This document shows, in pieces, positions 29,114 to 43,484 of a stretch of DNA of 64,000 nucleotides. The DNA comes from an uncultured Flavobacteriales bacterium (GTDB taxonomy: Bacteria > Bacteroidota > Bacteroidia > Flavobacteriales > Schleiferiaceae), in NCBI GenBank assembly GCA_913055685.1, contig CAJXKC010000001.1:1395734-1459733 (forward strand), in the 5' to 3' direction. How positions within the stretch are numbered: position 1 is the first letter of the stretch; every line of letters starts with the position of its first letter. The position numbers and the translations under genes were made by a program. A model generated the notes under the pieces. That model ran no database searches. It was not told where the DNA came from and worked only from the letters and a program-made list of their open reading frames with translations.

Positions 29114-29670
29114 TTCTTATAACGCCCTCCTCTAAAAAAGCGCTTCTGCCAATAGCTATTGCTTAAAGCACTTACCATTACCCCGCGACTGGAACTGGTA
29201 TGCACAAATTTTAGGTCTCCCAAATAGATTCCTACGTGATCGATGCGACGCCCTTTAACTTTAAAGAACACTAAGTCGCCATACTTTAATTCACTCAATT
29301 CAATGGCTTCCATCTCCGCAAAAAGGTCCTCTGCCCGTCGGCCCTCGAATTCCCTTTCAAAAATTTCTCGGTAAGCAATAATTACAAAGCCGCTGCAATC
29401 GACTCCTTTTTTGCTCATCCCGCCCATTTTATGGGGCGTTCCGTACCAATCGTCTATAAAGTCATCTAGTGACTTAAGGGAAACTGTACTGCTTTCTTCC
29501 TTATCGACACTCGGCTTTTCGACCAAGCCTTCTTCCATTTCATTATTGAGTACTTCATGTTCATATCTAGGTTTGGGTTTAACCTTGCTATTGCTTTGTC
29601 TCGGAGGCTTTAAACTACCACAGGAACTCAGAAGCAAAACAGCTAAACCTAAAATGAAGCCCTTTTTCAT
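29110..29670 (-). CDS. NlpC/P60 (C40) peptidase lipoprotein
   Basis: Start moved to ATG 29670; lipobox LLSSC; WYGTPHKMGG, GVDCSG, HVGIYLG, FVHTSSSRG. Confidence 0.93.
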   Translation of the reverse strand: MKKGFILGLAVLLLSSCGSLKPPRQSNSKVKPKPRYEHEVLNNEMEEGLVEKPSVDKEESSTVSLKSLDDFIDDWYGTPHKMGGMSKKGVDCSGFVIIAYREIFEREFEGRRAEDLFAEMEAIELSELKYGDLVFFKVKGRRIDHVGIYLGDLKFVHTSSSRGVMVSALSNSYWQKRFFRGGRYKN

Positions 29671-39878: not shown

Positions 39879-41171
39879 CTATAAACCGAACGTGGCTTTC
39901 ACATCGTTTACCCGATCGAGTTTCTCCCAGGTAAATAGTTCTACTTCAATTTCTTTGGTTTCAGTGCCCACTCCATCAGGTCGTGAGAAGCTCACCTTCT
40001 TCACTTCATTGGTGCGACCCATATGACCATAGGCTGCAGAGCTAGAATAGATAGGATTACGCAACTTTAGGTTCTTCTCAATCAAACCTGGGCGCAGGTC
40101 AAATAATTCCATAACCTTGGCCGCAATCTGACCGTCATTTAAATCAACTTTGGCGGAGCCATAAGTGTCTACAAATACCCCCATCGGTTCAACTACACCA
40201 ATAGCATAAGATACTTGAACCAAGATTTGATCGGCAACTCCCGCTGCAACTAAGTTCTTTGCAATATGACGAGCGGCATAAGCTGCAGAACGGTCTACTT
40301 TACTAGGATCTTTACCGCTAAAGGCACCACCACCGTGAGCACCTTTACCTCCATAGGTATCCACAATGATTTTACGTCCGGTTAATCCCGCGTCCCCATG
40401 TGGACCACCAATTACAAATTTCCCGGTTGGATTAATGTGGTATTTGATATTATCGCCAAACAAGGCTTGTAGCTCTGGACTAAGTTGCGCCTTAACCTTT
40501 GGGATGAGAATATTGATAATGTCTTCCCGAATTTTTGCCAGCATTTGTTCATCAGCTTCAGCCTGAGCTAAACCGCCTTCTGCCTTGATAAAATCGTCGT
40601 GCTGGGTAGAAACCACTATCGCATCGATACGTTGTGGCTTATGGTCGTCATCATACTCAATGGTAACCTGGGCCTTTGCATCCGGACGTAAGTAACCAAT
40701 TTCAGAGCCATCGCGTCTAAGATCCGCTAAGGTTTGAAGAATCTTATGGCTAAGGTCTAAAGCCAAGGGCATGTAATTATCGGTTTCATTGGTAGCGTAA
40801 CCAAACATCATACCTTGGTCGCCAGCGCCTTGCTCTTCAATATTACCACGATCTACACCTTGGTTAATATCTTGGCTTTGCTCATGAATAGCGGAAAGAA
40901 TACCACAAGAGTTCCCTTCAAACATATATTCGCTCTTAGTGTAACCAATTTTGTTAATCACGTTACGAGCAATTTGCTGAAGATCTAAATAGGTTTCAGA
41001 TTTCACTTCTCCCGCTAAAACAACCTGCCCGGTTGTAACCAGCGTTTCGCAGGCCACTTTCGAGTTTGGGTCAAATGCTAAAAAGTGATCGAGAATAGCA
41101 TCCGAAATTTGATCGGCGATCTTATCGGGATGTCCTTCGGAAACGGACTCAGAGGTAAATAGGTAAGACAT
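39879..41171 (-). CDS. metK: S-adenosylmethionine synthetase
   Basis: Start moved to ATG 41171 ([17 protein letters not shown]); [35 protein letters not shown]. Confidence 0.99.
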
Positions 41172-41228
41172 AGCTTCTTTGAGTTTAAAATTGCAGAGGG
41201 GAGAGGCTAATTGCTTACCGAGAAACAC

Positions 41229-41279
41229 TGGTTTAGCATTTTTTAGGGTGGTTGCAATCAGCCAAATTTTTCCACTCAG
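41229..41279 (-). promoter_or_regulatory. SAM-II class riboswitch (Bacteroidota long-loop-like variant) upstream of metK
   Basis: Minus strand: P1 GAGUGG/CCACCC (one mismatch), loop with UUUGGC and UUGCAA, then AAAUGCUAAA able to close the pseudoknot with UUUGGC; directly behind a promoter and upstream of metK. Confidence 0.8.
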
Positions 41280-41283
41280 GCGG

Positions 41284-41291
41284 CAAATGTA
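41284..41291 (-). promoter_or_regulatory. -7 promoter element for metK
   Basis: Minus strand TACATTTG ending just 5-prime of the aptamer. Confidence 0.75.
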
Positions 41292-41371: not shown

Positions 41372-42286
41372 ATGCAAAGAATCTTAGTCTCTTTTATTGT
41401 TTTGACCCTATTAAGTTCTTGTGTGAGCTACCGGCCAGTAGCTCCATTAAGCCAAGAGCATTTAAGTAGTCCGCCACATCCAGTAAATCCAGAGCTTTTT
41501 GACTTGGGAGGCTCATTACCTAATCGAACGATTGTGACTATAAAGCAGGAACAAATTACCAGCACCGGAAATCTAAAAAAGGCCCTGACCAAACGCTTAC
41601 GAAACCGATCTTTAGACGGAGCAATAATCACCTATCGCGATTATGCGACCCATGAAGCGGGGCGGGACCTTGGAAATGGTGAGGTACAATATTATACAGA
41701 ACACAATCACTTCGCCGAGTATTATCCATTTATCTACTTAGATGAAATTGCTAGCCGAGGAATTCTTGACTCCATCGTGCTGGAAGTTTCGGATCCAAAT
41801 GGGGATGACTATCAGGTGTATTTCTTATTGGATTGGCAAGAACAATTACGGTATATGCCCGCAGCGTTAAAACCGCAGGATTTTAGAGCTCTGGCGGTTC
41901 AGCCCTGGTTTTTCCTTCGCCAAAGATCAGGTTGGTACACCGCTTATTCCAGCAATGTTTATTTCAGTCAAAGGCGCTACGGCAGTGGTCCAGCGGCCCT
42001 TAAATATACTCCCTCAATAAACTATTATAATGTGTTTTATCTAAATGTACCCGGACCCAATTACAAGCTCTGGGTTTCTTTAGGCAAGGCAGATAGATAC
42101 CATATTGACTCACTTCAATATGAAGGGGAGCGCATAAAGGTGCTTCGGGACGACTTTCTAGGGATTGTCCGTAGTGAGACTTTTAGGATGCCCGATGGGA
42201 GACAATATCACTTTCGATACTTTTATAAAAGGCCGGAGCATGTTCCCAAAGATTGGATAATTGATCCGAAGAGTTTGCAACATTAA
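41372..42286 (+). CDS. Hypothetical lipoprotein
   Basis: Lipobox LLSSC; 304-aa ORF; no family recognised. Confidence 0.7.
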   Translation: MQRILVSFIVLTLLSSCVSYRPVAPLSQEHLSSPPHPVNPELFDLGGSLPNRTIVTIKQEQITSTGNLKKALTKRLRNRSLDGAIITYRDYATHEAGRDLGNGEVQYYTEHNHFAEYYPFIYLDEIASRGILDSIVLEVSDPNGDDYQVYFLLDWQEQLRYMPAALKPQDFRALAVQPWFFLRQRSGWYTAYSSNVYFSQRRYGSGPAALKYTPSINYYNVFYLNVPGPNYKLWVSLGKADRYHIDSLQYEGERIKVLRDDFLGIVRSETFRMPDGRQYHFRYFYKRPEHVPKDWIIDPKSLQH

Positions 42287-42310: not shown

Positions 42311-42414
42311 ATACTTATCCAGAAAGACGGAGGGAATGGGCCCGATGATGTCTTAGCAACCCCTTAGGGCGGGTGCTACTTCCCACCTCGTTTTCATACG
42401 AGGATAGATGAGAG
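42311..42414 (+). promoter_or_regulatory. SAM-I (S-box) riboswitch
   Basis: CUUAUC...GAUGAG P1, AGAAAGACGGAGGGA, GGCCCGAUGA kink-turn region, GCAACC...GGUGC P3, P4 CCUCG/CGAGG; upstream of metH. Confidence 0.95.
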
Positions 42415-42476
42415 GCGTTTCGCAAGAACAATTCCAATTCAATCTGGCTTTCTCGGTAAGTTGTAGTAAAGAAACT

Positions 42477-43484
42477 ATGACGAAAGAAGCTATTTTCAAG
42501 ATTTTAGATGAGCGGATATTGGTGTTGGACGGAGCAATGGGCACCATGATTCAGCGCCACAAGCTAGGAGAAGCCGAGTATCGGGGTCAGCGCTTCGCTG
42601 ATTGGCCCAGCGATTTAAAAGGCAACAATGACCTATTAAGTCTTAGTCAGCCGCAAATAATAAAAGACATACACCGCGCTTATTTGGAAGCTGGGGCTGA
42701 TATTATTGAGACCAACACTTTTAATAGTACCCGTATTTCCATGGCCGATTACAATATGGAAGATTTGGTACCTGAAATTAACCGGGAGTCGGCTCGTTTG
42801 GCGCGCGAAGCGGCCGATGAGTATACGGCTAAGAACCCTGGGAAACCTCGCTTAGTTGCGGGCTCCATGGGTCCTACTAATAAAACCGCTAGTCTTAGTC
42901 CGGATGTAAACAACCCCGGCTTTCGAGCCATAGATTTTGATACCCTAGCCGCTAACTACCGCGAGCAGGCGGAAGCATTAATTGAAGGTGGGGTAGATAT
43001 TTTATTGGTGGAAACGGTTTTTGATACGCTAAACGCCAAGGCTGCCTTATTTGCTTTAGAAGAACTTTTTGATGATTTAGGTAAGGACTTTCCTATTATG
43101 GTTTCGGGAACAATTACCGATGCCTCGGGACGCACCCTATCGGGTCAAACGGCCGAAGCCTTTTTAACCAGCCTAAGTCATGTGCCGCTAATGTCCATTG
43201 GCTTAAACTGTGCCTTGGGAGCGGATCAGTTAAGGCCTTATGTTAATGTGTTAAACCGAAAGGCACCCTTTGCTGTCTCGGCCCATCCTAATGCGGGTTT
43301 ACCAAATGCTTTTGGGGAATACGATCAGGGGCCAGATGAAATGGGCGCCTTAATCCGCGAGTATTTAGAGCAACAATTGGTAAATGTGATAGGTGGTTGT
43401 TGTGGTACCACACCCGAACATATTCGAGTAATGGCAGATTTGGCACAGGAGTTTGAACCTCGAAAAATTACGGCATTAGTATGA
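42477..43484 (+). CDS. metH: B12-dependent methionine synthase, N-terminal homocysteine-binding module (split MetH)
   Basis: Start moved to ATG 42477; [42 protein letters not shown]. Confidence 0.95.

Follow-up and report, generated by a model that had tools for sequence, protein, structure and literature searches.

Organization of the metK locus

The window, that is, the whole 64,000-nucleotide stretch of DNA analyzed here, encodes an S-adenosylmethionine synthetase (metK) on its minus strand. The coding sequence occupies positions 39879 to 41171, as read from the ORF list and its translation, and the ATG start codon lies at 41171-41169. A tblastn search returned 598 relatives of metK from across the Bacteroidota, the best of which share 67 to 78% identity, and the close relatives belong to the genus Croceimicrobium, order Flavobacteriales. 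An in-frame GTG at 41228 (minus strand), 19 codons upstream of the ATG and with the frame open through the linker (ORF 39879 to 41228), was considered as the metK start. It was rejected because it lies inside the riboswitch region and because alignment of the MetK N termini among relatives points to the ATG at 41171.

A Bacteroidota -7 promoter box, TACATTTG (TAnnTTTG), was read from the sequence at 41284-41291 (minus strand) and is identically placed in relatives. A UAnnUUUG promoter is also annotated for the SAM-II long-loop motif in the alignment file of Weinberg 2010 (PMC2864571). Judging from this layout, the leader transcript probably starts at about 41280-41278, just before the first aptamer helix (P1). 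On the plus strand, and divergent from metK, a SAM-I riboswitch was found at 42312-42414 (RF00162, 78.5 bits), upstream of an ORF with its ATG at 42477. Between the two SAM riboswitch leaders sits a 304-amino-acid ORF (41372-42286, plus strand), for which no relatives were recovered in a pattern-based scan of 185,579 species genomes (116 pattern matches, none confirmed).

A SAM-II long-loop aptamer precedes metK

The preliminary description of this DNA had placed a SAM-II riboswitch in front of metK and had proposed a comparison with the Rfam models. When run with cmscan, this comparison returned the SAM-II long-loop family RF01726 at 41223-41281 on the minus strand, with 61.0 bits against a gathering score of 44 (E value, 2.8e-9), and the match is full length (model positions 1 to 60 of 60). 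The motif is present as a single copy in the 2.96-Mb genome and was detected in 129 of 151 genomes of the host family, nearly always once per genome. Helix P1 is formed by GUGG (41275-72) and CCAC (41251-48), and the inner stem by AUU (41267-65) and GAU (41259-57). The H-type pseudoknot pairs UGCA (41256-53) with U41238, G41237, C41236, and A41234, following the SS_cons_1 line of the Weinberg 2010 Stockholm file. The pseudoknot bases (UGCA and the UG-C(U)A of the A-rich 3' tail) are present at the SS_cons_1 columns, and these columns are invariant in the leader set. An alternative pseudoknot of UUUGGC with GCUAAA was dropped, since the original SS_cons_1 line gives UGCA with UG-C-A.

The metK leader shares with RF01726 the P1 helix, the inner stem, and the UGCA pseudoknot strand, as well as the placement after a TAnnTTTG promoter and upstream of a gene of SAM metabolism in Bacteroidota, and its aptamer has no differences from the family (Weinberg 2010; PMC2864571). 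The leader thus carries a known SAM-sensing class, which presumably binds SAM here as well. The publication that introduced the motif reports that long insertions are tolerated and does not give an expression platform (PMC2864571); no description of a SAM-II long-loop expression platform beyond Weinberg 2010 was found in the literature.

Absence of an intrinsic terminator and of a Shine-Dalgarno sequence

No hairpin followed by a U tract was found between the aptamer (41223) and the metK ATG (41171) on the minus strand, and the sole U run in this interval, UUUU at 41189-41186, lacks a preceding stem. Likewise, none of the Shine-Dalgarno (SD)-like sequences GGAG, GAGG, and AGGA is found within 25 nt upstream of the ATG. 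The lack of a terminator and of an SD sequence in this leader, both of which had been pointed out before, is thus borne out. Bacteroidota ribosomes make no use of SD sequences (PMC7797042).

Intrinsic terminators do occur in this riboswitch class. In two leaders (L109 and L111; from a Prevotella-like genome and a metagenome-assembled genome labeled 'Christensenella sp.'), the aptamer is followed by a classical terminator, e.g., CUGCCUGCU...AGCAGGC and then UUUUUAUU, and an anti-P1 strand (CCUCUG) overlaps the 5' strand of the terminator, making the switch a transcriptional one in these leaders. Intrinsic termination and antitermination of this classical kind, with a GC stem and a U run overlapped by the anti-P1 strand, was therefore considered for metK, and the SAM-II riboswitch of Sinorhizobium meliloti metZ is predicted to work in this manner, while that of metA uses SD occlusion (PMC9373788). 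However, no terminator-like hairpin with a U tract lies in the window leader (41223-41171), a strict scan detected none in any congener and was positive for only 3 of 84 leaders overall, and intrinsic termination is a very improbable output of the metK switch.

A linker strand complementary to the aptamer

In the predicted free fold of the 131-nt leader, the 5' half of the aptamer (strand X, 41277-41250, minus strand) pairs with a strand of the linker (strand Y, GGUAAGCAAUUAGCCUCUCCCCUCU, 41219-41195). Strand X runs from the 5' strand of P1 through the purine tract, loop, and pseudoknot strand into a portion of the 3' strand of P1, and its duplex with Y was assigned -22.6 to -24.8 kcal/mol by RNAduplex. 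The core of this pairing is the anti-aptamer helix noted previously, GGCUGAUUGC (41263-41254) with GCAAUUAGCC (41214-41205), whose coordinates and composition (10 bp, one G-U) are exact. Its proposed extension by ACC (41252-50) and GGU (41219-17) is also found, across a 1x2 internal loop. The X:Y helix is present in both the minimum free energy (MFE) and the centroid structures of the leader. The duplex energy of -24.8 kcal/mol compares with -15.6±2.6 kcal/mol for dinucleotide-shuffled linkers, and 0 of 60 shuffled linkers were as good. As the helix occupies three of the four bases of the pseudoknot 5' strand and the 3' strand of the inner stem, the mutual exclusion of helix and pseudoknot, which had been proposed from the sequence, is real, and it was confirmed against the SS_cons_1 line of the original alignment.

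The pairing was then compared across 84 aptamer-bearing metK leaders, of which 16 are from the genus, 29 are from other genera of the host family, and 39 are from other Bacteroidota. In most of these, the 5' half of the aptamer pairs best with a three-part strand of the linker: a GCAAUCA-like 5' part opposite UGAUUGC, a middle part opposite UUUGNC, and a pyrimidine-rich 3' part opposite GGAAAGA and the 5' strand of P1. Among 56 nonredundant Bacteroidota leaders, the linker pairs with its cognate aptamer 3.0 kcal/mol better than with the aptamers of other species (Wilcoxon P = 1e-7). The covariation that had been suggested as a check across metK leaders is hence found, and the anti-aptamer helix is conserved. 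By eye, compensatory sets include GGC:GCC, GAC:GUC, and GUC:GAC; GAAC:GUUC, with an inserted base in GAACUG:CAGUUC; AGAUUU:AAAUCU versus GGAUUU:AAAUCC; and AGAUUUGAC:GUCAAAUCU versus GGAUUUGAC:GUCAAAUCC. A variant, GAGUAGC:CUACUCA, was seen by eye in Bacteroides-like genomes. On the evidence of these sequence comparisons, the anti-aptamer strand belongs to the SAM-II long-loop class throughout the phylum and co-varies with the aptamer.

The C-rich tract and a possible Rho-dependent attenuation

A C-rich tract of 12 nt, CCUCUCCCCUCU, lies at 41206-41195 (minus strand), exactly where it had been reported. It forms the 3' end of strand Y and pairs with GAG.UGG of the P1 5' strand in the MFE structure of the window leader. 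In four close congeners the tract differs (CCUCUCCCCUCUG, CCACUACUCUCUG, CCACCUCUCUUAG, and CCUCCUCUCCUUAG), and in each version the complementarity to CUGAGUGG or CUAAGUGG is preserved. Four types can be distinguished among the 16 leaders of the genus, type A being that of the window; in types B and C, the tract reads CUUCUU(U) and pairs with AAGAAG before the AUG, and in type D it is absent. Across leaders, C richness is limited to the Y strand (C, 0.28; G, 0.15), and the sequence after Y is A/U-rich (C, 0.13; G, 0.08). Y is pyrimidine-rich in the 84 Bacteroidota metK leaders because its partners, GGAAAGA and the 5' strand of P1, are rich in purines. The C-rich tract is thus accounted for as the 3' portion of the anti-aptamer strand, and a dedicated rut function, although possible, is not required. 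The earlier reading of the tract as a dedicated rut site is not upheld, as the tract pairs with the P1 5' strand and its sequence varies while the complementarity stays.

A broader role of Rho was considered separately. According to this alternative, Rho-dependent attenuation is the primary output: SAM frees the C/U-rich strand Y, giving Rho a loading site there and in the C>G-skewed RNA beyond; transcription is then terminated within the leader or early metK, and any pairing of Y with the start region is incidental. Rho is encoded in the genome (PF07497, 123.7 bits, 580-amino-acid open frame). The composition of the leader is compatible with rut function, the C>G skew being moderate (23 C and 9 G in the 78 nt from 41216, within the top 1.7% of 78-nt segments of the 64-kb window). 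Over the same span all congeners have a C/G ratio of about 2, and the C>G skew is somewhat larger in linkers of the family than in aptamer-free metK leaders (0.10 versus 0.054). The tract is paired in the predicted free fold and lies in a hairpin loop when the bound state is mimicked (see below), and its exposure to Rho would therefore depend on the ligand. The lack of an intrinsic terminator in the window leader and its rarity in the class are also in line with Rho-dependent termination, and control of Rho by riboswitches has been established in other classes (Hollands 2012; Bastet 2017).

However, the pyrimidine richness is limited to Y and explained by its complementarity to X, and the RNA after Y is A/U-rich. 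Furthermore, the tract is just 12 nt long, whereas a rut region would be expected to be C-rich, G-poor, and unstructured over some 70 to 80 nt, and its C richness is not conserved among the leader types, and Rho-dependent attenuation leaves the match between the linker and its own start codon region, described below, unexplained. No example of a Rho-dependent SAM-II riboswitch was found in the literature searched. Overall, it is rather doubtful that SAM-freed Y serves as a Rho loading site and that metK is controlled mainly by Rho-dependent attenuation, be it alone or coupled to start codon occlusion. Some involvement of Rho at metK is possible, following from blocked translation or independently of it.

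Predicted occlusion of the start codon in the SAM-bound state

To mimic the SAM-bound state, the aptamer (41277-41231) was blocked in folding. All folds are in silico predictions from nearest-neighbor thermodynamics, with the pseudoknot, the triplex, and SAM itself lying outside the model. In this bound mimic, Y is predicted to pair with the translation initiation region (strand Z, AGAAGCUAUGUCUUACC, 41178-41162, minus strand), which includes the AUG at 41171-41169. The MFE structure of the mimic contains four blocks of Y:Z pairs: GGUAAG (41219-14) with CUUACC (41167-62), CA (41213-12) with UG (41170-69), UAGC (41209-06) with GCUA (41174-71), and UCU (41204-02) with AGA (41178-76). All three bases of the AUG are paired in this aptamer-blocked fold. 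The Y:Z pairing is both the MFE and the centroid structure of the downstream 82 nt (-13.2 kcal/mol, z = -2.5), and only 2 of 200 shuffled sequences were as good.

The predicted accessibility of the start region changes accordingly between the two folds. In the free leader, positions -10 to +10 have a mean unpaired probability of 0.67, which decreases to 0.29 when the bound state is mimicked; with shuffled linkers, the bound mimic gave 0.54±0.06, and 0 of 60 were as low as 0.29. In the predicted pairings, 11 bases of Y are shared between X:Y and Y:Z. The Y:Z duplex (-15.3 kcal/mol) is weaker than X:Y (-22.6 kcal/mol). The ON state was calculated at -31.1 kcal/mol and the OFF state at -24.4 kcal/mol for the secondary structure of P1 and Y:Z, to which about -5.5 kcal/mol for the pseudoknot and the energy of ligand binding would be added. 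These modeled X:Y and OFF energies would fit a switch.

We therefore favor, with a probability of roughly 0.6, the reading that the metK switch is mainly a translational OFF riboswitch in which three strands relay the signal and the start codon is buried without involvement of an SD sequence. In the absence of SAM, X would pair with Y, including the C-rich tract, and thereby disrupt P1 and the pseudoknot; Z would be single stranded, and metK would be translated. With SAM present, the P1/pseudoknot fold would capture X and free Y, which could then pair with Z in the four blocks and bury all three AUG bases. Burial of the AUG would block initiation where ribosomes rely on an unstructured start region and not on SD pairing. 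As a secondary effect of the loss of translation, Rho could terminate transcription in the C>G-skewed leader and the beginning of the coding sequence. The direction of control (OFF with SAM) is suggested by the function of metK and the behavior of the class, and AUG occlusion is the presumed cause of reduced expression. The preliminary description had mentioned, as a second option, that SAM binding remodels the initiation region, and this option is the one favored here, given the drop in openness from 0.67 to 0.29 and the family-wide pattern described in the next section.

Predicted start region occlusion in relatives of the host

All 16 same-genus leaders show the drop in accessibility (mean z = -2.48 versus shuffled linkers), although these sequences are related by descent and supply only four independent leader types. 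Each type has its own Y:Z pairing register. Type A, that of the window, uses the four blocks given above (GGUAAG/CUUACC, CA/UG, UAGC/GCUA, and UCU/AGA); type B uses GUAAG:CUUAC and CUUCUU:AAGAAG, and type C uses CUUCUUUAA:UUAAAGAAG and UAAG:CUUA. In type D, Y has lost GGUAAG, codons 2 to 4 are synonymously recoded to UCA UAU UUA, and the pairing is GCAUACUGC:GCAGUAUGU; it can also be given as CAUACUGC:GCAGUAUG, with the synonymous codons UCAUAUUUA. RNAalifold, applied to a MAFFT alignment of 13 congeners, predicted 0 pairs for a consensus Y:Z helix, as the register differs from one leader type to another. The evidence for Y:Z is therefore statistical, from shuffles of each sequence and from comparisons of cognate and noncognate pairs, and not from column-wise covariation.

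As controls, 41 metK leaders without the aptamer were taken from the same phylum. Start occlusion in the genus leaders differs from that in these controls (P = 9e-8), and the leaders of the other genera of the host family have a mean z of -0.81, compared with +0.18 in the controls (Mann-Whitney P = 0.0013). Linkers of the host family pair with their own -12 to +14 region 3.3 kcal/mol better than with that of other species (P = 9e-6). With a control target of equal length in the coding sequence (+14 to +40), no cognate advantage was observed in the host family (-0.34, P = 0.33). In a position scan of the family, occlusion relative to shuffled linkers was strongest at +0 to +4 (-0.16, t = -4.9), with flanks at -5 to -1 and +5 to +9. 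The MFE structures of 37 of 45 family leaders have 5 or more of the 9 bases from -3 to +6 paired with the linker, compared with 12 of 41 controls (Fisher P = 9e-7). Examples of Y:Z pairs from other genera are CGGCAUUUU:AAAAUGCCG in L015, GGCAUU:AAUGCC in L012, and CAUUCG:CGAAUG in L002. Within the limits of structure prediction, these comparisons show that both X:Y and Y:Z exist, exceed chance, and co-vary throughout the family.

In aptamer-bearing leaders of other Bacteroidota families, no start occlusion signal is seen (z = -0.02; P = 0.18 in the cognate test), and yet the anti-aptamer strand is significant there (Flavobacteriaceae, Bacteroidales, and others). Since these families keep the anti-aptamer strand without start occlusion, another output must exist in the class, and it could act at metK of the window, too; the retention of the strand in these families is in this respect a point for Rho. 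With few leaders having terminators and other families lacking start occlusion, the class appears to use more than one output. In five Flavobacteriaceae leaders (L034, L045, L047, L048, and L053), an anti-aptamer strand, GUCAAAUCYU, lies 11 to 14 nt before the AUG and co-varies with GGAARGAUUUGAC; neither start occlusion nor a terminator was predicted for these metK leaders.

The need of these families for some output also bears on mRNA decay. In this scenario, the anti-aptamer helix merely tunes ligand sensitivity, the output is decay of the mRNA, and Y:Z is weak or irrelevant. The A/U-rich linker after Y is compatible with such a role, and there is a precedent in other riboswitches for dual control of translation and decay (Caron 2012). 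However, neither a cleavage motif nor a conserved single-stranded element turned up, and decay leaves the cognate-specific pairing of the family, centered on the start codon, unaccounted for. We consider mRNA decay an improbable main output of the metK switch.

Comparison with known riboswitches

The SAM-II and SAM-V riboswitches are direct-occlusion switches with the ribosome-binding site inside helix P2 (review, PMC10907184). Classical SAM-II/SAM-V riboswitches (metX; PDB 2QWY) share with the metK switch the ligand class, the H-type pseudoknot, and the output, which is probably translational and OFF with SAM. They differ in that the SD sequence is located inside the aptamer helix P2 and occluded directly (PMC10907184), whereas the metK switch is without an SD sequence. 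Furthermore, the metK AUG lies 52 nt past the Rfam match, which ends at 41223, and the signal would be relayed by a distinct switching strand.

In the thiM TPP riboswitch of Escherichia coli and the add adenine riboswitch of Vibrio vulnificus, the SD sequence is sequestered with or without the AUG. These sequester/anti-sequester switches share with the metK switch the mutually exclusive helices, with one strand alternating between the aptamer and the initiation region, and thermodynamic, posttranscriptional control, which for metK is a prediction. Unlike thiM and add, the metK switch would target the AUG, codons 2 to 4, and positions -7 to -1, in a phylum that is SD independent, and it belongs to another aptamer class.

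Rho-dependent riboswitches, such as those responding to Mg2+ in Salmonella mgtA and to FMN in E. coli ribB, or the coupled systems of thiM and lysC, share with the metK leader the lack of an intrinsic terminator, a C>G-skewed leader, and a ligand-dependent exposure of a C-rich stretch, the last being predicted for metK. In contrast to these systems, the C-rich tract of the metK leader is short and accounted for by anti-aptamer pairing.

Within the Bacteroidota, TPP riboswitches of Bacteroides act at the transcriptional or the translational level, and translational riboswitches abutting start codons have been demonstrated there experimentally (bioRxiv 10.1101/867226). The metK switch would share with them translational control in an SD-less Bacteroidota host. 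The TPP aptamers lie <5 nt from the start codon without a described relay strand, and their ligand and fold differ from those of the metK switch. Overall, the aptamer belongs to a known family, and the platform would be a sequester/anti-sequester design adapted to an SD-less host, which extends known principles.

SAM-II is a textbook example of a direct-occlusion riboswitch with the SD sequence inside the aptamer, and Bacteroidota do not use SD pairing. If true, the relay of one strand between the aptamer and the AUG would show how a riboswitch can control translation without SD sites. The model is concrete and can be mutated, and the genus offers natural 'compensatory' variants in its four pairing registers and the synonymous recoding of codons 2 to 4. 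It could be of use for the annotation of regulation in Flavobacteriales and for the design of SD-independent synthetic switches. The output of the class would be lineage dependent, with start occlusion in the host family and intrinsic terminators in some Prevotella-like genomes. Should metK be controlled mainly by Rho after all, it would be the first Rho-dependent SAM-II riboswitch, and the same output could serve the many Bacteroidota SAM-II long-loop leaders that have an anti-aptamer strand and neither a terminator nor start occlusion.

Additional observations on related leaders and the neighboring SAM-I riboswitch

Two leaders, from a Bacteroides sp. (L052) and from Mediterranea massiliensis (L066), are long, with 188 and 122 nt, respectively, after the pseudoknot tail, and around the anti-aptamer strand they contain long stretches rich in C and poor in G. 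The linker of L066 has C and G fractions of 0.26 and 0.08, and about 40 nt of it are almost G free. As candidates for a Rho-dependent platform, these two leaders surpass the leader in the window.

The leader of the neighboring SAM-I riboswitch (metH) is without a terminator, and a local hairpin (GUAGU..ACUAU) covers its AUG in both states. In a crude two-state fold, no change in start accessibility was detected for this leader (0.45 versus 0.45; 48 of 100 shuffled sequences were as low).

The metK and metH leaders have a 12-mer, UUUCUCGGUAAG, in common, located at 41225-41214 (minus strand) and 42449-42460 (plus strand), respectively. The genome contains 5 copies, compared with about 0.4 expected and 2 of a reversed control. 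The 12-mer was considered as a site for a trans-acting factor and dismissed, the other three copies being in unrelated coding contexts. In the metK copy, GGUAAG is accounted for by its pairing with CUUACC and ACC, while UUUCUC is not. One of the other three copies, at 29364-29379 (plus strand), shares 16 nt (TTTCTCGGTAAGCAAT) with the metK leader.
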